Of a stretch of DNA of 64,000 nucleotides, positions 828 through 34,912 are shown one piece after another. Positions within the stretch are counted from its first letter, which is position 1. The number at the start of each line of letters is the position of its first letter. Position numbers and translations under genes: made by a program. A model generated the notes under the pieces. That model made no database searches and was not told the DNA's origin. It saw only the letters and a list, made by a program, of their open reading frames with translations. The stretch is from an uncultured Methanolobus sp. (GTDB lineage: Archaea > Halobacteriota > Methanosarcinia > Methanosarcinales > Methanosarcinaceae). The stretch lies in the NCBI GenBank assembly GCA_963675495.1, contig OY776215.1, forward strand, positions 1,888,001-1,952,000, given 5' to 3'.

Positions 828-2717
828 ATGTCTGAGAATTTTGATGTCAAGTTGGATAGTAAAAGCTATCTTCCCGATCCTTCTGTAAAGGAAAATTCAT
901 GGTTGCAGGATTATGAAACTGCCTACAATGAGTTTTTAAAAGATCCTGAAAAACACTGGGAGAATGTTGCAGAAGAACTTGTGTGGTTTAAGAAATGGGA
1001 TAAAGTAAAGGAATGGAACCATCCGAATGCAAAATGGTTTACAAATGGCAAGTTGAACATCACCCATAACTGCCTGGACCGGCATGTGTTCAATGGCAAA
1101 AGGAATAAAGTAGCCATGATCTGGGTAGGTGACAATGGTGAGGAGCAAATTCTAACATATCGCCAGCTTTATCGTGATGTCATGAGATTTGCCAACGGCC
1201 TGAAGTCACTTGGGGTCGAAAAAGGCGACAGGGTATGCATCTATATGCCGCTTGTTCCCGAGCAGATCATCGCAATGCTTGCATGTGCCCGTATTGGTGC
1301 TGTACATAGTGTCGTGTTCGGAGGCTTCGGTGCCAATGCGTTGCATTCCAGAATAAAGGATGCACAGGCAAAGATCGTAATCACAGCAGATGCAACTCTC
1401 AGGCGTGGAAAGCGCATAGACCTCAAGACACTGGTAGATGAGGCTGTTGTCAACGCTTCATGCGTGGAAAAGATCGTGGTTCTCAGAAGAATGACTCCAC
1501 AACTGGAACTTTTCTCAGAGATAGAAGTCGATTTCCATGAGATAATGGACGAAGTGGAAAAAGAATGTGAGCCAGAGGTCATGGACGCGGAGGATCCGCT
1601 GTTCATTCTCTATACCAGTGGAACTACAGGTCCTGCAAAGGGCATAGTCCATGCATGTGGTGGCTACATGGTCGGTACCTATTATACTACAAAGAATATG
1701 TTTGACCTGAAAGAGAATGATGTCATGTGGTGTACTGCAGACCCAGGTTGGATCACAGGTCACAGTTACATTGTCTATGGTCCTCTTTCAATGGGTGCAA
1801 CGATCCTGATCTCCGAAACAACACCTGACTATCCAGACCCCGGTGTCTGGTGGAGCATGATCGAAGAGTTCGATGTAACTGTTTTCTATACAGCACCTAC
1901 GGCAATCCGCATGTTCATGAGAATGGGTGAGGAGTGGCCTGATCAGTATAACCTTAGTTCACTGCGTGTACTGGGTTCGGTTGGTGAGCCTCTTAATCCA
2001 GAAGCATTCGAGTGGTATTACCGTGTCATAGGCAAGGAGAAATGCCCGATTCTTGACACATGGTGGCAAACAGAAACAGGTATGCACATGCTTACAACAA
2101 CGGTTGGAGAGCCGATGAAACCTGGATTTGCAGGAAGAGCTGTTCCTGGTGTTATTGCTGATGTCGTGGATGAGCATGGCGAACCTGTGCCTGCCGGAAC
2201 AGGTGGTTTCCTTGTCATAAAAGAACCATGGCCTTCCATGATGAGAACCGTTTACGGTAATGACGAGCGGTATGATCAGTATTGGAATACTATAGGGAAC
2301 TATTACATGGCAGGCGACCTTGCAGTAAAAGATGATGATGGATACATAATGATCCTGGGTCGTTCTGATGATGTCCTGATAGTTGCAGGTCACAATATAG
2401 GCAGCGCCGAGGTGGAAAGTGCCCTGGTGTCCCACGAGGCGGTAGCAGAAGCAGCTGTAATTGGAAAACCCGACCCTCTCAAGGGTGATTCCATAAAGGC
2501 TTTCATTATATTGCGTATGGGTTTTAGTCCCAGTGACAAGTTGAAACTGGAGCTTCTTTACCATGTAAGGATGAACCTTGGCCCTATAGCAATGCCATCT
2601 GAGGTCGAGTTTAGGGACTCTTTGCCAAAGACTCGCAGTGGAAAAATAATGAGACGTTTGCTCAAGGCACAGGAACTTGGACAGGATCCAGGGGACATTT
2701 CCTCACTGGAGGATTGA
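828..2717 (+). CDS. acs: AMP-forming acetyl-CoA synthetase
   Basis: [38 protein letters not shown] motifs; ATG 828 follows GGGAG. Confidence 0.93.
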
Positions 2718-2788
2718 TCTCCTCTTTTTTTTTAAAAATAGTAACAGTTATGAAGTATACACTACTTTAATTAGTGCAGGTGATTACC

Positions 2789-3771: not shown

Positions 3772-4041
3772 ATGAGCAAAGTGGAACTTTTAGATTTCAG
3801 TGCAACCTGGTGCGGACCTTGTAAAATGCAGAAGCCTTTCCTTGAAAAAGTTGAGGCAGAACTTGGTGACAAGGTTGAAGTTAAGGAAATAGATGTAGAT
3901 CAGAACCAGGCGCTTGCAGGAAAGTATGGCATCCAGGCGGTACCTACTCTTATCATTCTAAAGGATGGGGAAGTAGCAAAACGCTTTACAGGACTTACCA
4001 CTGCGGGTGTCCTCATCGAAGAACTAAATAAGGTGCTTTAA
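3772..4041 (+). CDS. trxA: Thioredoxin
   Basis: DFSATWCGPC active site and VPT cis-Pro motif; GAGGT RBS before ATG 3772. Confidence 0.93.
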   Translation: MSKVELLDFSATWCGPCKMQKPFLEKVEAELGDKVEVKEIDVDQNQALAGKYGIQAVPTLIILKDGEVAKRFTGLTTAGVLIEELNKVL

Positions 4042-4133
4042 GCACCGGTTCTTTATTTTTAGTCTATTTTCCAACGTATTTTTTGAAAAAACGTAAATAA
4101 CTTAAGATCAATCATTTTCGAGGGTTTAGAAAA

Positions 4134-5147
4134 TTGAAGGAACTGATCGATCTTGGTGTCATGGTTTTCAGGGTGAAGAACTCCCGTGGTTCTTTCAAGC
4201 CGCACCTTTCTGTTAAGTTCAAATCTGTTGAAGGGGACCTTGTCACATTTTCTATTGATACTACAAGGACTCCTGCGAAATACCAACAACCTGATGCTTA
4301 TCTTATTACACATGCCCATTCCGATCACAATGGAAAATCCGCAATGTTGTCCGAGCGCGCGGTATGTTCGGACAAGACTGCCCTCGCTCTTGAGATTCGC
4401 CACCAGCGCAAATATGCAGGCAGGATGTTCAAAGTTGGCGAAACTATCGACATCAAAGGCGTAAAGGTGCAGACCTTCCCTAATTTTCACACAGTTGGTT
4501 CAACGTCATTCATGTGGGAAAATGAACTTGGTACAAAGATACTTGTGACCGGTGATGTAAAGGATGCTTCCATGCTCCCTAACTGCGATCTCCTGATAAC
4601 CGAAGCCAACTATGGTGATCCCGGAGACACAAGCTGTTATTTTGAGGATGACATCACAGGTTTTGAGAATGCTTTTAAAGCAGATCCTTCCATTGCTTTT
4701 GGGGCCTATGCATTTGGCAAAGCGCAGAGGGCTGTGGAACTGCTTAGAGAACTTGGTTATGATGGTATAATAGAGATGGACGATCAATCTCTTTCACTGA
4801 CCAGAACTCTCCTTGAGGATGCCGGGGAACTTGCATGTCTCGGAGAGAGCTGCGGAGATTGTATAAGTGTCGTTCCTCCGTGGGACCTGGGTAAACTACC
4901 GTCTCATATTTCTAAATATGTAATGACAGGGCGCAGCGATTATCGCTATCCTGCAATCCAGATAAGTGATCATCTGGATGCCAGGGGGCTTGTGGAGATG
5001 GTAAAGGACATAGACCCTGAATTCACAGTTGTCTATCATCCGAATGGACACCGCCCCGGAAAATTTGCAAATCATCTCAATTCCATCGGATTTAATGCCC
5101 TTTCCATTGATATGATCACTAATGTACTGAGCAATGAATTTGTGTGA
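4134..5147 (+). CDS. Metallo-beta-lactamase fold (beta-CASP-like) hydrolase/nuclease
   Basis: THAHSDH, H-TVGS, TGD, TEANYG, GKAQR, SDH motifs. Confidence 0.8.
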   Translation: MKELIDLGVMVFRVKNSRGSFKPHLSVKFKSVEGDLVTFSIDTTRTPAKYQQPDAYLITHAHSDHNGKSAMLSERAVCSDKTALALEIRHQRKYAGRMFKVGETIDIKGVKVQTFPNFHTVGSTSFMWENELGTKILVTGDVKDASMLPNCDLLITEANYGDPGDTSCYFEDDITGFENAFKADPSIAFGAYAFGKAQRAVELLRELGYDGIIEMDDQSLSLTRTLLEDAGELACLGESCGDCISVVPPWDLGKLPSHISKYVMTGRSDYRYPAIQISDHLDARGLVEMVKDIDPEFTVVYHPNGHRPGKFANHLNSIGFNALSIDMITNVLSNEFV

Positions 5148-5234
5148 TATGCTGTCTGGCAGGATAAACATTTATATAAGTACTGGTTTTTATAGTACCC
5201 ACACTATCCAAGTTGTACCAGGAGATCAGATCAA

Positions 5235-5648
5235 TTGTCCAAATCATCCAAAAAAAAGCAATCAGAGGCTGCATCTAAGCAGGAATCCATTGATATTGCG
5301 CAACCAGCTCCTACTTCATCCGGCTCCGGTAAGGTCTCATTTAAAGTGAGGACTCCGGAAGAAAGGAAAAAAGCTCACATGGAGGGTATCATCAAAACGG
5401 CAGTTGCAGCTATTATCGGTGTAATAGCGGGTATTCTTGCCTACATACAGCTTGGTATTGCTGATGACCCCACTGTGAAATGGTATGCAATACTGACCAT
5501 CGTTGCTGCGCTTTCCTTCTACGCAATGAAACTGGTATTCCCACTATTCAAGATCAAAGTAAAGGAATTCGGCTTTAAGGACTGGTTCTATGTTGAGTTC
5601 ATTGTTATAGATTTCTGTCTGGTAACATGGACACTGCTCCTTAATTGA
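5235..5648 (+). CDS. Three-TM membrane protein, probably archaeal EMC6-like
   Basis: Three hydrophobic segments, KDW.Y..F..W..LLN ending, located directly upstream of RLI. Confidence 0.6.
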   Translation: MSKSSKKKQSEAASKQESIDIAQPAPTSSGSGKVSFKVRTPEERKKAHMEGIIKTAVAAIIGVIAGILAYIQLGIADDPTVKWYAILTIVAALSFYAMKLVFPLFKIKVKEFGFKDWFYVEFIVIDFCLVTWTLLLN

Positions 5649-5699
5649 TCTTCTCTTTTTACCTTTATCTATTATATTTATCACTGACAGGGATTTTAC

Positions 5700-7472
5700 A
5701 TGCGAATTGCCATATTGAATAAAGACAGATGCCAGCCAAGACGTTGCAGCCATGAATGTGAAAAGTACTGTCCTCGTGTAAGGACTGGGGATGAGACTAT
5801 TATTTTCGGAGACGATGGTAAGCCAATAGTGTCCGAAGAGCTTTGTGTAGGCTGTGGTATCTGTGTCCACAAGTGTCCTTTTGAAGCTATAATGATCATT
5901 GGTCTTCCTGAAGCCCTTACAGAACCAACCCACAGGTATGGTCAAAACGGATTTGCCCTCTATGGTCTGCCAATCCCACAGGTTGGCAGGGTCACTGGTA
6001 TTCTTGGACCCAACGGTATCGGTAAAAGTACGGCAGTCCAGATACTTTCCGGCACTCTTGTACCAAATTTCTCACAGGAAAGTGGCAATTGGGATAAGGT
6101 ACTTGAACATTATTCCGGTACAGCTCTCCATGACTATTTCAGCGATGTGATAGACGGCAACATCAAAGTTTCCCAGAAACCGCAGTATGTGGATATGATT
6201 CCCAAGGCCTTTAAGGGAAAGACCAGCGAACTTCTTGACAAGACCGATGAGAAAGGCAATCTTTCGGAACTGGTTGAGCGTCTCAACCTCTCACATGTCC
6301 TTGACCACAAGATAACGGAACTCAGTGGTGGTGAACTACAGAGGGTAGCTATTGCCGCATGTGCTGCAAAGGATGCTGACTTCTACTTCTTCGATGAGAT
6401 CAGTCCTTATCTTGATATCTACCAGCGTATCAATACAGCGCAACTAATTCAGGAAATTGCAGAGGAAAAAGCCGTACTTGTCGTAGAGCATGACCTTGCT
6501 ATACTTGACATGCTTGCCGATGTTGTGCATGTTGCATATGGTGAACCAGGAGGCTACGGTGTGATGACCCACCCTAAAAGCGTGCGTGTTGCCATAAATC
6601 AGTACCTTAAAGGCTACCTTCCTGAAGAGAACGTGCGTGTACGTCCTGAAGCCATCAAGTTTGAGGTTCATCCTCCAAGAGTAGGAGCGGATATTAACAC
6701 CCTTGTGGATTATGACGGATTTTCCAAAAAATATGGTGAAGGATTCTCTCTCTCAACTGATGGCGGTTCACTAAAGCAAGGAGAAGTTCTGGGTATAGTG
6801 GGTCCCAACGGTATAGGTAAATCCACATTTGTAAAGATACTTGCAGGAGAGGTGCAGCCGGATGAGGGTGACCTTGACCTTGACATAAAAATATCATACA
6901 AACCGCAATACATCAAGGCTGACACGGCTATTCCGGTGCAATATTACCTGCGCGGTCTGTCCAGCAGGTTCGACACAAGTTATTATCAGTCAGAGATTGC
7001 CATACCTTTGCAGATAGAACGGCTTTATGATCACCTGATAACAGAGCTCAGTGGTGGAGAACTCCAGAGGGTAGCTATTGCAGCATGCCTTTCGCAGGAT
7101 GCTGACATGTATATTCTTGATGAACCAAGTGCCCACCTTGATGTAGAACAACGTTCAATGGCGACAAAAGTGATCAAAAGGTTTGCAGAGAACAACCGTA
7201 AGACTGCAATGGTCGTTGACCACGATATCTATATGATAGACATGCTGAGTGAACGTCTCATAGTCTTTGAGGGTGAGCCTGCAGTTTACGGTAAGGCACA
7301 CAATCCTTCAAGCATGCAGGATGGTATGAACAAATTCCTGGCAAACCTTGACATAACATTCAGACGTGATGAAGATACTTCCCGTCCAAGGGTAAATAAA
7401 CAGGATTCAAGGCTTGACAGGGAACAAAAAGCCAAAGGAGAATATTACTACCACAATATTATGGATGAGTAA
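5700..7472 (+). CDS. rli: Ribosome recycling ATPase ABCE1/RLI
   Basis: N-terminal FeS cysteines (CVGCGICVHKCP), two GPNGIGKST and two LSGGELQR motifs. Confidence 0.96.
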   Translation: MRIAILNKDRCQPRRCSHECEKYCPRVRTGDETIIFGDDGKPIVSEELCVGCGICVHKCPFEAIMIIGLPEALTEPTHRYGQNGFALYGLPIPQVGRVTGILGPNGIGKSTAVQILSGTLVPNFSQESGNWDKVLEHYSGTALHDYFSDVIDGNIKVSQKPQYVDMIPKAFKGKTSELLDKTDEKGNLSELVERLNLSHVLDHKITELSGGELQRVAIAACAAKDADFYFFDEISPYLDIYQRINTAQLIQEIAEEKAVLVVEHDLAILDMLADVVHVAYGEPGGYGVMTHPKSVRVAINQYLKGYLPEENVRVRPEAIKFEVHPPRVGADINTLVDYDGFSKKYGEGFSLSTDGGSLKQGEVLGIVGPNGIGKSTFVKILAGEVQPDEGDLDLDIKISYKPQYIKADTAIPVQYYLRGLSSRFDTSYYQSEIAIPLQIERLYDHLITELSGGELQRVAIAACLSQDADMYILDEPSAHLDVEQRSMATKVIKRFAENNRKTAMVVDHDIYMIDMLSERLIVFEGEPAVYGKAHNPSSMQDGMNKFLANLDITFRRDEDTSRPRVNKQDSRLDREQKAKGEYYYHNIMDE

Positions 7473-29663: not shown

Positions 29664-30860
29664 ATGATGCGAAATATCAAAGTCGAACACCTGATAGAAA
29701 CGCCGGTGGAAAAACAGCAGATTGAACTTGTGGAGAGAAAAGGTGTGGGTCACCCTGATAGTATCTCCGACGGTCTTGCAGAGGCAGTAAGCCGCGCATT
29801 GTGCAAGGAATATGTAGATAAATGTGGTGTAGTTCTCCACCACAATACTGATGAGACCCAGATCGTGGCAGGAAGGTCAAACCCTCAGTTCGGTGGCGGA
29901 GAGGTTACTCAGCCTATATACACTTTGCTTGTGGGAAGAGCAACCAAGGAATTTGAAGGCGTGGAGATTCCGGCAGAGTCTGTTGCATTAGCTGCTGCGA
30001 GAAACTATATCAGAAACACAATTGTTGATATTGACCTTGAGAGGGATATCATTGTTGACTGCAAGCTCGGGACAGGTTCATCTGATCTCAGGGATGTTTT
30101 CCAGAGAGACAGGGTTCCTGTGGCAAATGATACTTCTTTTGGTGTTGGGCATGCTCCATTTTCAGAACTTGAACAGATCGTATATGAGTCTGAAAGAAAG
30201 CTGGTCACTGACCTGAAAAAGAAAATACCTGGTATTGGAACAGACATTAAGGTCATGGGTCTTAGGGAGAATGACGATATAAACCTGACAATATGCTGTG
30301 GTATGGTTGGAAGATATGTTGATGACATGGATCACTACATCAATATCAAGGAAGAGATGGCTGATTATGTTACTGATCTGGCACTCAAACGTACGGATCG
30401 TAAGGTTAAGACCTTCATCAATGCAGCGGATAATGTGGAATGTAAGTCAGTGTTCCTGACTGTGACAGGTACTTCTGCTGAAATGGGTGATGATGGTTCA
30501 GTGGGTCGTGGTAACCGTTGTAACGGACTCATTACTCCAAACAGGCCAATGAGTATGGAGGCGACCAGTGGTAAGAACCCTATCAACCATATTGGTAAGA
30601 TCTACAACCTTCTTTCCACCCAGATGGCAAAGGATATTGTGAAGGCTGTCCCTGATGTCCAGGATGTCTACATCAAGCTTCTTTCACAGATCGGTCAGCC
30701 AATAGACCAGCCACTTGTAGCAAGCGCGCAGATCATTCCTGACGATGGTGCAAACTTTGCTTCCATAAGGGCGGAAACAGAGGTTGTCATGGATGAGTGG
30801 CTTGCTGATATCACCAGAATAACCAAGATGGTCATAAACGGCGAACTGGATACTTTCTGA
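29664..30860 (+). CDS. mat: Archaeal S-adenosylmethionine synthetase
   Basis: [44 protein letters not shown]. Confidence 0.96.
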
Positions 30861-31067: not shown

Positions 31068-31175
31068 CCCGCCTTAACTCAGTGGTAGAGTGCGCGGCTG
31101 TAGTTTGATTCATGTGACATGATCACATTACGCGCAGGCACCGCGATGTCCCCGGTTCGAGTCTGGGAGGCGGGA
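31068..31175 (+). tRNA. tRNA-Tyr(GTA) with 36-nt intron at canonical 37/38 position (31104-31139)
   Basis: Acceptor CCCGCCT/AGGCGGG+A, anticodon stem CGCGG/CCGCG, GTA at 31100-31102, GGTTCGAGTC T-loop, CTGT/GCAG central helix with 3-nt bulges. Confidence 0.93.
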
Positions 31176-31250
31176 CTTACAAAATCAACAAAAAGCCTTA
31201 AATACAAGAGTCTCCTTTTAGGGGTGCTCACAAGCGAAAACTTACCTCAT

Positions 31251-31323
31251 GTCCGAATAGTGTAGAGGCCTATCATGGAGCCCTGTCGAGGCTCCGACCC
31301 GGGTTCGAATCCCGGTTCGGGCG
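31251..31323 (+). tRNA. tRNA-Asp(GTC)
   Basis: Acceptor GTCCGAA/TTCGGGC+G, stem GAGCC/GGCTC, GTC at 31285-31287, GGTTCGAATCC. Confidence 0.96.
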
Positions 31324-31335
31324 TAATTTCTTAAT

Positions 31336-31370
31336 CCCGGTTTTTCCGGGCTTTTTTTATCTTTTTATTA
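31336..31370 (+). terminator. Terminator after tRNA-Asp
   Basis: CCCGG-TTTTT-CCGGG hairpin followed by T tracts. Confidence 0.65.
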
Positions 31371-31493
31371 CTTTATGATTGCTTATTTGTAAATCTAGTT
31401 TATATACTTATTTTTCTACCTAATAGTTTTAATAAATATTAGGTTTTAAATCACTATTTATCCATAGTTTTGCTTCTTTTGCACGTGGTACGT

Positions 31494-31601
31494 ATGAATA
31501 ATTGCGGTAATTTAAGTACACTCAAAATAGTTATCATGTTGTCTGTTTATCTTGCAATGATACTTGCAATTGTATTAGCTGCAGGACTAATGGGGGTATG
31601 A
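31494..31601 (+). CDS. 35-aa membrane microprotein, VYL family copy 1 (MNNCGNLSTLKIVIMLSVYLAMILAIVLAAGLMGV)
   Basis: Manual translation; GTGGT RBS-like site, CTATTTAT promoter-like box near 31454-31461; aligns with three paralogs. Confidence 0.7.
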   Translation: MNNCGNLSTLKIVIMLSVYLAMILAIVLAAGLMGV

Positions 31602-31665
31602 ATGGCAGTATTCAAGAAGAAAAATTTCCATAAGGTTTTATACATGTATTTGAGACACTCTGTTT

Positions 31666-31788
31666 GTGGAACTCTTTATAAGAAAAAGCAACTTGAAGAT
31701 ACAACAAATCGTCTTATTTGTATCTGTCTATCTTTTTATTATGCTTGCATTCGTTTTACTCGATTGGTTTTTTCCAGGTATTCAGTGA
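31666..31788 (+). CDS. 40-aa membrane microprotein, VYL family copy 2 (MELFIRKSNLKIQQIVLFVSVYLFIMLAFVLLDWFFPGIQ)
   Basis: GTG start about 24 nt after TTTTATA box; aligns with paralogs. Confidence 0.62.
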   Translation: MELFIRKSNLKIQQIVLFVSVYLFIMLAFVLLDWFFPGIQ

Positions 31789-31956
31789 ATTAATATTCTC
31801 TGGATTAACTCTCAATTGTGGGGCATGCTTCTTCATGTAGGCAACTTTTAGTTCATCTGCTCTTATTTACTCGTTAGATCTAGCCAATATATTCCCAAGC
31901 ACATATAAAAAATATTAACTGAGTGACTTTTATATATTGATTTGACATCATGTTCT

Positions 31957-32109
31957 ATGAATTTTTTTTTCTGTGGTAATTCTATCGGGCATGATGCAAT
32001 AGAAATCGGACGTTTTCACAGAATCGGCAGAAATCTGTTGTGTCTCAATTGTGTAGCAGACCTTAAATCTATCTTGGAGCTTGAAAGATTGAAGAAAAAA
32101 AAGTGCTAA
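31957..32109 (+). CDS. 50-aa zinc-finger-like small protein (MNFFFCG...CLNC...)
   Basis: ATG about 22 nt after TTTATATA; xxxCG and CxxC knuckles, first Cys position is Phe. Confidence 0.55.
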   Translation: MNFFFCGNSIGHDAIEIGRFHRIGRNLLCLNCVADLKSILELERLKKKKC

Positions 32110-32345
32110 ATTCAGAACCATGTAGCACGAGAAAGAAGTTCATCTATGTATGAATAACCAGGAAATATTCATTGATTTTGCGATGATTTTATTGTGTAAA
32201 TGAGGGTAAATATCTCGTTTTAACTATAAACAAGTAATTTGTATTTTTGGTTTTTATTAGTATCCTTCTATTTAACTCTATGAATAAATAATAGAACTTG
32301 GTTATTTATTTATACAACGGTGACCTATATTGCAATTGGTACAAT

Positions 32346-32453
32346 ATGGATGATTCGGCTAACCCTAATCTTTTCAAAGTAATGGTACTTGCACTTGTCT
32401 ACCTCATGCTGCTTTCGACTGCAGCTTTATTTGCAGGTTTTTCGAGTGTTTGA
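32346..32453 (+). CDS. 35-aa membrane microprotein, VYL family copy 3 (MDDSANPNLFKVMVLALVYLMLLSTAALFAGFSSV)
   Basis: Manual translation; TTTATTTATA box upstream; same length and register as copy 1. Confidence 0.72.
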   Translation: MDDSANPNLFKVMVLALVYLMLLSTAALFAGFSSV

Positions 32454-32561
32454 TACGGGTTACTTTTCCCTGGCTACTGGCTTGAGCTTTACTCATATGA
32501 CTGCCTAAAAGGTGCTATTAGGAATCAGCAGCAAAAAAGAAAATAAAAGGGAAAATAAAAG

Positions 32562-32765
32562 TCACTCTGACTTTACCTTAACTGCAACCAGAGAGCGACC
32601 CAGCTTATCTTCCAGCTTTCTGATCTCTTCCAGGTCAGTCTTGCTAAGTTCTGCATTACTAATGTCAATGCCTGAAAATGACAGTAGAGTTACATTCATT
32701 TTATCTTCGAGTTCTTTGATTGATTTTACTTCTTCATCTTTGAGTGCAGAAAAGGCCCATATCAT
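32562..32765 (-). CDS. Small protein made of two ~31-aa repeats
   Basis: SALKDEEVKSIKELEDKMNVTLLSF / AELSKTDLEEIRKLEDKLGRSLVAV; GGAGA RBS. Confidence 0.8.
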   Translation of the reverse strand: MIWAFSALKDEEVKSIKELEDKMNVTLLSFSGIDISNAELSKTDLEEIRKLEDKLGRSLVAVKVKSE

Positions 32766-32870
32766 TTTTTCAATCTCCTAAATATTGTTACATGTTTTCT
32801 CATGCATTCTTCTCATAAGTATATAGTGGGTAAAGCTATTTATATGACATTCTCTATTTTAATGACTGTT

Positions 32871-32978
32871 ATGTTTAGCAAGCAAACTGATTTTACTATA
32901 GAAAGAATTATTCTTTTGGTATTCGTATATCTTGCATTGATGGTAAGTGTTGGTTTATTCTCTGCTATTTTCATGTAA
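32871..32978 (+). CDS. 35-aa membrane microprotein, VYL family copy 4 (MFSKQTDFTIERIILLVFVYLALMVSVGLFSAIFM)
   Basis: ATG about 25 nt after AAAGCTATTTATAT BRE/TATA; aligns with paralogs. Confidence 0.72.
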   Translation: MFSKQTDFTIERIILLVFVYLALMVSVGLFSAIFM

Positions 32979-33132
32979 TCTCTTGAGATCAGGTTATTAA
33001 TATAATTGCAGTGCTAATTTTGTTATTTGGTTCTTACTCACAAAATAGTGTATGTAAAAAAGTGATTGTTTCCGAATATTCTCTTTGAAAAAAAAAATGG
33101 TGGAATTAATCGTTTTTCCGTTTTTGAGGGAG

Positions 33133-33522
33133 TTAAAAGGTCATTGTATGAATAACTTGCAGCACACTGCATTCCATAAAAATGACCATTAGGTTGTTCA
33201 CCACCAGGAACAAGCCAACAATTGCGATACTTTTTCTGGACAAAACCCACAGCAGGTCGGTCCACCTGGAATCAGAATCACTCAGAATTCTGTAGTTCCA
33301 GTAGACTATTGCAAGGAAGAATACCTTCAGAACAAGAAGAGATTCTACACCATAGCTCTGGAACACTGCTGCCAGAAAATCATTCTCTTCAAATCCATAT
33401 TCAAGAGCATGGGCAGTTGTCAGGAAATCACCAAGTACGTAAAACAATACAATATATTTGACATCCTTTAGAAATTCACATATCTTTGTGAATTGTGAAT
33501 CGTATTGGTTTACGTAACTCAT
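33133..33522 (-). CDS. Small membrane protein (DUF5658-like)
   Basis: GD.LTT..AL..G.E.N motif, LK, VV.NN, three TM. Confidence 0.75.
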   Translation of the reverse strand: MSYVNQYDSQFTKICEFLKDVKYIVLFYVLGDFLTTAHALEYGFEENDFLAAVFQSYGVESLLVLKVFFLAIVYWNYRILSDSDSRWTDLLWVLSRKSIAIVGLFLVVNNLMVIFMECSVLQVIHTMTF

Positions 33523-33736: not shown

Positions 33737-34912
33737 ATGGCCTCAACACAAGTTCCCATTGATATTTCCGCATCACTGGAAAACCACAGGTCAGATGTAT
33801 ATCTGATGGTAGGGAATTCGAACAATGCAGACATCTATTACGCAACCCGCTTCTTCGCTTCAGACGAGTTTGCTTACTTCCATACAAAAGAAGGCGCTGA
33901 AACGATCCTTATTTCTGATATGGAAAAAGGTCGAGCAGAGATCGAGTCAAGGGTGTCTGATATTCGTACACTGCAGGGGTGTGATTACAGGTCAAAGGTA
34001 AAGGAAAGAAAAGATCCATCTCTTGCTTATTGTGACTGTCTTGCAGATATTCTGCAAAAAGAGGGCGCAAGACGAGTAGCAGTTCCAAGAGATTTTCCGT
34101 ACCATATTGCTCAGACCCTCAAGGAAGAGGGTTTTTCCATAGAAGCTATCAAAAGTCCATTTGCCGAGTTGCGCTCACGAAAAGACCCCTCAGAGATCGA
34201 GATGGTAAAAAAGGTTCAGGATGCCTGCAATAAAGCAATGAAAGCGGCAGCTGAGATGGTAAAAAAATCAGAAGATGTTGAAGGTGTACTCAATTACCGT
34301 GGATTTGCCCTTACATCTGAAATGTTACGTAAAGAAATAGATATAACGCTTCTTGAACATGGATGTGAGGCAGAGAGTACCATAGTTGCCGGTGGTACAG
34401 GCTCTGCAAATCCTCATTGGGAAGGTGCAGGCCCTTTAAAGGCTAATGAACCTATTGTCATGGATATCTTCCCGCACAGCAAAAAGGAAAGATACTATGC
34501 TGACATGACCCGGACAGTGCTTAAAGGTGAGCCTTCAGAAAAGCTTGTGGACATGTATGAAGCCGTCCGCGAAGCACAGACAACCGGAATAGAAATGGTT
34601 AAGCCCGGTGTCAAATGCAGTGATATTCATAACAAAGTGTGCGATGTTTTCAAAGAAAGGGGCTACGACACCATCAGGGAAGGTTCAAATGTTGGTTTCA
34701 TCCATTCAACCGGGCATGGCGTAGGACTTGAGATACATGAAATCCCATTTGTAGGGAACAGCGATGTTGAGCTTGAGGAAGGTAACATCATTACAATAGA
34801 ACCGGGACTGTACTATCCTGATGTTGGTGGCATACGTCTGGAGGACCTTATACTGGTGACTGCAGATGGGTTTGAGAACCTCACGGAAATGGAAAAGAAA
34901 TTTGTATATTAA
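33737..34912 (+). CDS. Xaa-Pro peptidase family (M24B) protein
   Basis: PH, D, ADMTRT, HSTGHGVGLEIHE, TIEPGLY, GIRLED. Confidence 0.93.
   Translation: MASTQVPIDISASLENHRSDVYLMVGNSNNADIYYATRFFASDEFAYFHTKEGAETILISDMEKGRAEIESRVSDIRTLQGCDYRSKVKERKDPSLAYCDCLADILQKEGARRVAVPRDFPYHIAQTLKEEGFSIEAIKSPFAELRSRKDPSEIEMVKKVQDACNKAMKAAAEMVKKSEDVEGVLNYRGFALTSEMLRKEIDITLLEHGCEAESTIVAGGTGSANPHWEGAGPLKANEPIVMDIFPHSKKERYYADMTRTVLKGEPSEKLVDMYEAVREAQTTGIEMVKPGVKCSDIHNKVCDVFKERGYDTIREGSNVGFIHSTGHGVGLEIHEIPFVGNSDVELEEGNIITIEPGLYYPDVGGIRLEDLILVTADGFENLTEMEKKFVY

Follow-up and report, generated by a model that had tools for sequence, protein, structure and literature searches.

The 64,000-nucleotide (nt) stretch analysed here (the window, G000:C1:1888001-1952000 in our genome set) comes from an uncultured Methanolobus sp. 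whose genome is a single contig of 2.87 Mb with 40.5% G+C. Downstream of a tRNA-Asp gene in this window lies an array of four very short open reading frames (ORFs), and our comparisons indicate that these are genuine protein genes of one family of small membrane peptides, each with its own promoter. The initial annotation had picked out the four frames, and our reading of the sequence agrees with it in full: all four lie on the plus strand at the coordinates and with the translations it gave, three of them being 35 amino acids (aa) long with an ATG start. They occupy a gap of about 2.9 kb between a gene for an S-adenosylmethionine (SAM) synthetase-like protein and one for an M24 peptidase-like protein, in which the sole ORF of at least 90 aa is one on the minus strand. 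The genes of the array and their TATA-like boxes are listed below. Box positions are counted from the start codon to the 8-mer's first base, E values come from a profile built from other genomes, dN/dS is the ratio of nonsynonymous to synonymous substitution rates, and A-type and B-type denote two kinds of N-terminal head described later.

31457-31464, plus strand: TATA-like box of ORF1, TTTATCCA, at -37; read from the sequence, with family-wide positional enrichment
31494-31601, plus strand: ORF1, A-type, 35 aa, ATG start; E 1.4e-13; ortholog 86% identical in nucleotides, dN/dS 0.25
31637-31644, plus strand: TATA-like box of ORF2, TTTATACA, at -29; read from the sequence
31666-31788, plus strand: ORF2, divergent paralog, 40 aa, GTG start; E 4.1e-11
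32309-32316, plus strand: TATA-like box of ORF3, TTTATACA, at -37, with a second match, TTTATTTA, at -41; read from the sequence
32346-32453, plus strand: ORF3, A-type, 35 aa, ATG start; E 2.4e-7
32839-32846, plus strand: TATA-like box of ORF4, TTTATATG, at -32; read from the sequence
32871-32978, plus strand: ORF4, B-type (MF.K...R...LFSA), 35 aa, ATG start; E 1.2e-11; of a lineage always distal to the A-type gene

The four ORFs had been proposed to be paralogs from a gapless alignment over the motif (N/D)-x4-(K/Q/R)-(I/V)-h5-V-Y-L followed by a hydrophobic helix. The alignment has no internal gaps, and V-Y-L together with one later Leu is invariant in the four peptides; across the wider family, however, the Tyr alone is invariant and V-Y-L as a unit is not. 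With its five middle residues required to be uncharged, the motif occurs 4 times in the 3.59 million six-frame residues of the genome, every time in the array, and a loose form of it gave 5 genome-wide matches versus 0-3 in five shuffled sets, although both counts are post hoc, the motif having been drawn from the same four ORFs. Leave-one-out profiles, each built from three ORFs, recovered ORF1 (E 0.0012), ORF2 (6.8e-5) and ORF4 (0.064). ORF3 was not recovered by the profile of the other three (E 18), and its paralogy is therefore not demonstrable from this genome alone. We then turn to an independent profile of 33 peptides, all from other genomes and none from this one, which was searched against 61,829 six-frame segments. 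This profile recovered all four ORFs, from ORF1 at the top to ORF3 at the E values listed above, and found two further copies, at G000:C1:336017-336130 (minus strand, E 2.3e-7) and 867969-868073 (plus strand, E 9.6e-6). The next-best segment had an E value of 0.11, a clear gap below these. The family thus has six members in this genome, and the profile match of every ORF of the array indicates that the four are genuine protein genes of one family.

Two details of the gene models deserve mention. An in-frame GTG at 31485, three codons ahead of the ATG, could start ORF1 earlier and would make it 38 aa long. ORF2 is the weakest member: it starts with GTG, the position of its ortholog's ATG reads CTG here, and it is present in just two genomes, this one and its closest relative (G001). 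Between these two the 5 nucleotide differences lead to 4 amino-acid changes, and we regard ORF2 as a probably young or decaying copy.

From 30 loci we extracted 40 distinct peptides. Their length is tightly held: 28 of the 40 are exactly 35 aa and 6 are 36 aa, in an overall range of 30-55. The layout is likewise shared: some 10 polar residues form the head, a Lys or Arg follows, and one unbroken hydrophobic helix then runs nearly to the C-terminus and carries a small-residue pair (AG or SA) near that end. The Tyr is invariant in an alignment of 37 sequences and stands eight residues after the near-constant Lys/Arg. The heads differ by lineage: A-type heads read M-N/D-D/E/N-x-G/A-N and B-type heads M-F-x-K...R, and the head of the dispersed copy at 336 kb begins MKKSASIEIKR. 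In all 40 peptides the best 19-residue Kyte-Doolittle window has a mean of at least 2.19, and the hydrophobic stretch stops 0-4 residues before the C-terminus. Basic residues precede the helix and few or none follow it, a bias that is strongest in the second genus of the family's range (for example MKSKSRVKK). By the positive-inside rule, basic residues predict the cytoplasmic side of a membrane protein. The basic residues ahead of the helix therefore suggest that the N-terminus lies inside and the C-terminus outside, with a tail-anchored mode of insertion.

The family appears to be selected at the level of protein, as the initial annotation had argued from a kept motif in diverged DNA. Nei-Gojobori dN/dS was 0.06-0.44 in all 12 of the partly overlapping pairs with at least 70% nucleotide identity, third-position changes being dominant. 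In six ungapped pairs at 80-90% identity among the 28 members of 35 aa, differences at codon positions 1, 2 and 3 numbered 18, 12 and 66. These patterns indicate that the family is under purifying selection where it is present. The frames are also kept in relatives, with no stop inside the matches listed for a 37-sequence profile and a fixed length across species; the exception is one weak match with a TAA, which came from a separate search.

The distribution of the family is narrow. A profile of the four ORFs (threshold E 0.01) matched 17 of 24 other genomes of the same genus and gave no match in 16 genomes that represent five other families of the order. With the 37-sequence profile (threshold E 0.001), matches were found in 25/34 other Methanolobus genomes and in 8/11 genomes of a second genus, labelled Methanomethylovorans, where the peptides are 32-33 aa long; the same profile matched 0/105 genomes from 14 further genera of the family Methanosarcinaceae, the 34 genomes of the largest of these genera included. 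As far as searched, the peptide family is limited to Methanolobus and Methanomethylovorans by these profile matches. Named Methanolobus species with peptide loci include M. psychrotolerans, M. bombayensis, M. profundi and M. vulcani, and several genomes hold 6-8 copies.

The suggestion that the peptides belong to no recognised family was borne out, Pfam and NCBIfam giving no match above cutoff for the four peptides; in Pfam-A none of the four reached the gathering score, the best hit having 15.3 bits against a cutoff of 28. The largest protein collections are nearly devoid of them (13 clusters among 5.8 billion in one, 15 representatives among 1.84 billion in another), and the entries that exist are unnamed or called "hypothetical protein." Of the four ORFs, ORF3 alone already had a predicted-protein entry (P0006) in such a collection. 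In the ESM Atlas the best feature score for ORF1 was 0.87, to unnamed clusters and below a meaningful level. No fused or longer form was seen among 8000 candidates scored, which is weak evidence, and a lone 181-aa representative that starts with the motif continues in low-complexity text and was set aside as a read-through call by its appearance. Searches with tblastn gave no match for ORF1 in plasmids and none for ORF4 in phages, and 137 pattern matches in viral contigs contained no relative. Literature searches on Methanolobus small proteins, the cold box and cold-induced small RNAs (sRNAs) of M. psychrophilus turned up no description of the peptides; the supplements of PMC5378194 possibly list such loci as sRNAs. 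From these database and literature results, we conclude that the family was previously unnamed and is unassignable to the curated families tested.

Each gene had been said to carry its own TTTAT-type box, and the enrichment across the family supports this. Sense-strand matches to TTTATATA with at most one mismatch peak at -40 to -31 (13/39 genes), and with at most two mismatches they occur at -50 to -20 in 39/40 genes versus 18/40 for a control window, the mean for shuffled sequences being 22.0. The positional peak indicates a separate archaeal TATA box for every gene, situated 22-37 nt ahead of its start. Differential RNA sequencing of a Methanolobus species places the BRE (B recognition element) and the TATA box about 19-22 nt from the transcription start site, and leaders under 10 nt are counted there as leaderless, as given in the available text of PMC5378194. 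Combining this spacing with our TATA positions, transcript starts are predicted within about 10 nt of the start codon, and this implies mRNAs that would be nearly leaderless. Of the listed sequencing runs that contain the stretch, none is recorded as RNA. Three carry all of it in a single long contig with 0 differences and may be where this DNA came from. A fourth (X4, of unrecorded kind) yielded 223 short contigs over all 30 bins, with a very uneven depth of 312-22,546 and an RNA-like look; such contigs cannot show starts, strand or level, and we drew nothing from them.

The sequence just before the start codon also differs by lineage. B-type genes have ACTGTT immediately before ATG TTT. A-type genes have NTGG(T/C)(A/G) within 14 nt upstream in 21/24 cases, mostly at -9 in frame (16) and in five cases out of frame at -10 or -8; since it is retained out of frame, this motif is conserved as nucleotides, not codons. 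Some copies may gain three residues from it, as used by the database entries beginning MVRM or MVDM. In the window, NTGGTAC(G/A)T stands directly before the A-type ATG (31485-31493 and 32336-32345). Candidate roles for the A-type motif are those of an initiator or start-site element, of a weak GGT resembling a Shine-Dalgarno sequence, and of an alternative start. Farther upstream, the copies adjoining tRNA-Asp share TTTTAATAA..AATTTTAAC (31410-31450 in the window).

The features that surround the array are as follows.

29664-30860: archaeal S-adenosylmethionine synthetase-like gene, left flank of the locus
31068-31176, plus strand: tRNA-Tyr(GTA) with a 36-nt intron; Rfam tRNA match of 49 bits, also found by ARAGORN's intron option; marks the upstream edge of the syntenic block
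31250-31324, plus strand: tRNA-Asp(GTC); default run of ARAGORN and Rfam; the array begins about 170 nt downstream
31336-31358, plus strand: hairpin CCCGG-TTTTT-CCGGG followed by a T-run, directly 3' of tRNA-Asp; read from the sequence
33111-33125, no strand assigned: CGTTTTTCCGTTTTT, oligo-T terminator-like element in the gap between the array and the convergent DUF5658 gene; read from the sequence
33133-33522, minus strand: gene of a 129-aa DUF5658 membrane protein, convergent, closing the array in Methanolobus loci
33737-34912: M24 peptidase-like gene, right flank; label from homology across species

The intron of tRNA-Tyr(GTA) sits in the anticodon loop; this tRNA was missed by default ARAGORN and matches that of the closest relative at 100% identity. 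An Rfam search of the locus placed just the two tRNAs above threshold, with two sub-threshold sRNA matches that both fall outside the ORFs. A comparable hairpin and T-run are found just downstream of tRNA-Asp in other Methanolobus genomes, and this element is likely, from its sequence, to be the end of the tRNA transcript. If so, the peptide genes are probably not co-transcribed with tRNA-Asp. At the other end of the array, an A-run precedes CGTTTTTCCGTTTTT (33087-33125 together), and at the same place in other species a CGTTTTT unit is repeated up to about 6 times; the two runs probably form a two-way oligo-T terminator.

Two other small ORFs were noticed between the peptide genes. At 31942-32109 (plus strand) lies an ORF of 55 aa; the closest relative has an ortholog with Cys spaced as CxxC...CxxC, in the manner of a zinc ribbon, and in the present copy the first CxxC pair is disturbed beside a T-run, and a 49%-identical piece exists in one more genome (L011). 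At 32562-32765 (minus strand), between ORF3 and ORF4, a 67-aa soluble ORF contains an internal duplication of two LK/LS-D/E-EE..K-LEDK-like halves, and its promoter region faces that of ORF4. This ORF has 92.5% protein identity in two close relatives (L003 and L031), was not found in the other loci and has no Pfam or NCBIfam match.

The place of the array after tRNA-Asp, as first described, holds within the genus: of 25 related loci, 14 have tRNA-Asp within 1.5 kb of the peptide genes and on the same strand. We anchored another 28 loci on the convergent DUF5658 gene; 18 of these have peptide genes, always on the strand opposite to it, and tRNA-Asp stands on their far side in 10 loci. Counted from the tRNA, A-type precedes B-type in ten genomes, and four of these add a third lineage, A' (MNS.A.LPTMKILF...); the same order recurs at the named loci of the DUF5658-anchored set. 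Across species the B-type peptides are 43-74% identical to ORF4. These comparisons indicate that at least two old paralog lineages, A and B, with A' in some species, keep a fixed order from tRNA-Asp to the DUF5658 gene. Since the family is common to two genera, it is old.

At the same time, the locus is fluid. In the closest relative the flanks are 92% identical and ORF1 86%, the spacer between the tRNA and ORF1 only 68%; this relative has one copy more, and the ATG is gone from its ortholog of ORF3. Among peptide-less Methanolobus genomes, all five examined carry other genes after tRNA-Asp, and two show remnants of the ATGGTAC motif. From these comparisons, the 3' side of tRNA-Asp is an insertion hot spot in Methanolobus, and the peptide genes are dispensable, in an array that gains and loses copies by birth and death. 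Of additional note, the array of the closest relative (L031, G001:C1:1479000-1488500; 1175-2184 and 3999-6105) carries a split transposase of insertion sequence (IS) type (162 + 125 aa), a 475-aa transposase and a tyrosine-recombinase fragment, and in one peptide-less species (L042) a 384-aa integrase-like ORF begins 78 nt after tRNA-Asp.

The DUF5658 protein that closes the array has 41 invariant positions in 15 sequences (GDF.TT..AL, G.EEN.FL, FLV.NNL.VIF). Its label is a precomputed one for Pfam PF18902; our own Pfam scan listed no such match at E up to 1. Two paralogs of it are encoded elsewhere in this genome, and relatives occur in 115 of 150 other genomes of the family Methanosarcinaceae. 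We considered its co-occurrence with the peptides as evidence of partnership and rejected it: it is suggestive within the genus, confounded by kinship and paralogs, and contradicted by a third genus. Prediction of a complex between the B-type peptide and the DUF5658 protein scored 0.01 (mark 0.32), which is not evidence either way, and an AlphaFold2 model of the DUF5658 protein had a mean pLDDT of 56.9, too poor for a fold search. On its position, the DUF5658 protein is a syntenic candidate partner only. At 10 loci without a profile match (Methanohalophilus and metagenome-assembled genomes), small transmembrane (TM) ORFs beside DUF5658 genes showed nothing family-like. As for the dispersed copies, the fifth (L032) is convergent to a 429-aa gene, which we take to encode nicotinate phosphoribosyltransferase, and the sixth (L033, G000:C1:866500-869500) lies about 290 nt upstream of a gene for a 306-aa multi-pass membrane protein with repeated helix motifs (1866-2786, plus strand).

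Based on these findings and on analogy with known small proteins, we tentatively propose that the peptides are membrane-embedded modulators or accessory subunits, with a confidence that falls somewhat short of even. Their small size and strong hydrophobicity leave no catalytic potential. The conserved mid-membrane Tyr, the small-residue pair near the outer end of the helix and the lineage-specific heads suggest specific helix-helix packing and a head that is read in the cytoplasm; the ordered, anciently diverged paralogs with their own promoters suggest non-redundant roles and separate regulation. In the mechanism that we envisage, the helix face that bears the Tyr and the small residues would let the peptides pack together or onto a larger membrane protein, the polar head specific to each lineage would be read in the cytoplasm, and separate promoters could allow condition-specific dosing of each paralog.

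Several observations weigh against this proposal. The third genus has DUF5658 copies that are 57-59% identical, yet peptides are found in 0 of its 3 genomes; three Methanohalophilus loci have DUF5658 and no peptides; and in Methanomethylovorans a 248-aa gene separates the DUF5658 and peptide genes (this ORF, L070 3337-4083 on the minus strand, shares the strand of the peptide gene and follows it at a distance of about 94 nt). Between the two dispersed copies there is no protein-coding neighbour in common, and no conserved partner gene was found. Arrays, a genus-level range, loss in about a quarter of the species and insertion sequences would be expected of selfish or accessory elements (toxins, for example) no less than of core-machinery subunits. 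Gene status in this genome is drawn from sequence comparison. Furthermore, the dN/dS pairs overlap in membership and the genome counts involve kin, so these numbers are not independent, uniform as their direction is. An accessory subunit of the MttS kind would be encoded with, or co-occur strictly with, its partner; here the genes have their own promoters, the neighbours of the dispersed copies are unrelated, and DUF5658 genes exist where peptides do not. Two testable features of the bacterial type I toxin paradigm and one of operon-encoded subunits are not seen here, which lowers the case for membership in either class, and the peptides may still behave in a similar way.

The strongest rival to the modulator proposal, though in our view an unlikely one, is that the peptides are type I toxin-like: they would damage or depolarise the membrane, an RNA acting in cis-antisense or in trans would keep their translation off, and the array would be a chromosomal cluster like the enterobacterial ldr and ibs loci. 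Bacterial type I toxins are small proteins with one hydrophobic helix, intergenic, in tandem and dispersed copies and with a genus-level distribution. The peptides agree with this in being under 60 aa with a single TM helix, in having tandem multi-copy arrays plus dispersed copies, in their narrow taxonomic range, and in the dispensability and turnover of their genes, which adjoin tRNA genes where an integrase gene and IS elements also land. In bacterial type I systems, however, a long structured leader of the toxin mRNA blocks translation until it is processed, and the TATA boxes at -29 to -37 in the array leave no room for one, the predicted leader being about 10 nt or less. The transcripts predicted for the four ORFs are no more stable in their folds than shuffled sequences (z scores of -0.81, -0.73, -0.83 and -0.16), and on the antisense strand of 39 genes the TATA-like matches do not peak at any position from -150 to +300. 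Tandem toxin copies in enterobacteria are near-identical, whereas the paralog lineages here are old and ordered, each under purifying selection. Small-protein mRNAs paired with antisense RNAs do exist in M. mazei, by the portion of bioRxiv 10.1101/2025.10.28.685009 available; in the accessible text of PMC12390103, type I systems are so far known from three bacterial phyla only.

We give distinctly less weight to the idea that the loci produce stress-induced transcripts, for instance cold-induced ones, that have been catalogued as sRNAs, with the RNA as main actor or with a dual function. The available text of PMC5378194 describes 195 intergenic "sRNAs" in M. psychrophilus, with 43 intergenic regions that have two or more, and "nine highly conserved sRNAs" that are cold-induced and share a motif upstream of their promoters, the "cold box"; our genes might be among them. 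As units they are short, with 105-123 nt of coding sequence, occur in several copies and carry promoters, and TAATAA/AATAAA-like words are over-represented at -85 to -45 (12/40 genes versus about 2-3 expected). These words could be the cold box or just orthologous AT-rich spacer, and since many of the 12 genes are orthologs at one locus, the enrichment is not independent. A link to the published sRNAs is thus far putative. Moreover, a role of the RNA alone would leave the codon-position pattern, the dN/dS below 0.45 and the fixed length of 35 codons unexplained, and the transcripts have no unusual fold stability. If the peptides are the product of such transcripts, this explanation is compatible with the modulator proposal. 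A version that joins the two, in which A, B and A' would be an ancient, ordered, tail-anchored set that assembles together in the archaeal membrane, is encoded by the cold-induced "sRNAs" of M. psychrophilus and, as a dedicated module switched at transcription, tunes the membrane in the cold, strikes us as a long shot.

Leaderless multi-peptide antimicrobials (an archaeocin), with the neighbouring membrane protein as immunity factor, are a very improbable explanation. Several related peptides of 30-40 aa are made without a leader in an array adjoining a conserved small membrane protein, and a four-peptide leaderless antimicrobial does exist in aureocin A70 of staphylococci. However, the polar heads have a net charge of only -1 to +2 and the helix is unbroken and hydrophobic, not cationic and amphipathic; the locus has no transporter gene, its neighbours being the SAM synthetase, DUF5658 and M24-type peptidase genes; and the dispersed copies lack such neighbours. 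That the ORFs are chance frames in AT-rich intergenic DNA is scarcely credible: their very short length, the failure of the other three to recover ORF3, and the GTG start and mostly nonsynonymous differences of ORF2 could be read in that way, but conservation of frame, length, motif and promoter position across species contradicts it for ORF1, ORF3 and ORF4.

Small single-helix membrane proteins are widespread regulators; in archaea very few are backed by comparisons, and annotation overlooks most of them. The class is well known; the present family is new by sequence, and nothing points to a new principle. For genes of 105 nt it is an unusually clean comparative case, since length is fixed, the mid-membrane Tyr never varies, every gene has a promoter and the lineages are ordered in two genera, and it offers work on methanogen small proteins a defined multi-paralog target. 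Intergenic "sRNA" catalogues of Methanolobus may contain mRNAs of such peptides. If the peptides prove to be products of the cold-induced transcripts, a published class of archaeal "non-coding" RNAs would be re-read as mRNAs; if they prove to be toxins, this would be the first type I-like system in archaea; and if they are modulators, a multi-paralog case would join MttS and sP24.

How does the family compare with known systems? Its length and tail-anchored type resemble those of Prli42 (NF033880), the 31-aa stressosome anchor of Listeria. Membership in that family was considered and rejected: ORF3 scored E 0.0075 and 16 bits against a cutoff of 27.5 bits, the other three ORFs had no match, and the simplest reading is a resemblance between hydrophobic helices. 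The bacterial type I toxins Ldr, Ibs, ShoB, TisB and Hok (see Fozo et al. 2010, PMC2887945) are like the peptides in size, single helix, tandem or dispersed copies, genus-level range and intergenic location. The peptides differ from them in having no antisense promoter signal, long leader or stable fold, in their old and ordered paralogs and in their archaeal host.

Closer parallels come from Methanosarcina mazei. As described in the available text of bioRxiv 10.1101/2025.10.28.685009, sP24 is a single-TM protein that protects under salt stress and is made from a short, probably leaderless transcript (spRNA24), first listed as an sRNA. Our peptides share with it the single helix and, as predicted from the TATA positions, may share the short, nearly leaderless transcript. 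According to that text, sP24 has a narrow, stress-related profile, being found in some M. mazei strains, and unlike our genes, for which the 39 examined give no antisense promoter signal, it has a mapped cis-antisense RNA (asRNA94); sP24 is also a single gene, and the family described here forms an ordered paralog array. The second parallel is MttS, a 49-aa protein with one TM helix that is, with MttP, a subunit of the MttPQS trimethylamine transporter (bioRxiv 10.64898/2025.12.02.691841, as far as its accessible text goes). MttS is encoded in an operon directly after its partner, one copy per operon, whereas our peptide genes are stand-alone units in a multi-copy array with no adjoining transporter gene. 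By description, the two also differ in the wide conservation of MttS among methylotrophic methanogens and in its extracellular helix, as that source presents it. Nevertheless, both are single-TM microproteins of methylotrophic methanogens of the same order that were long missed by annotation, and MttS, in the account available, packs against a larger membrane protein, which is the behaviour that we propose for the peptides of this array.

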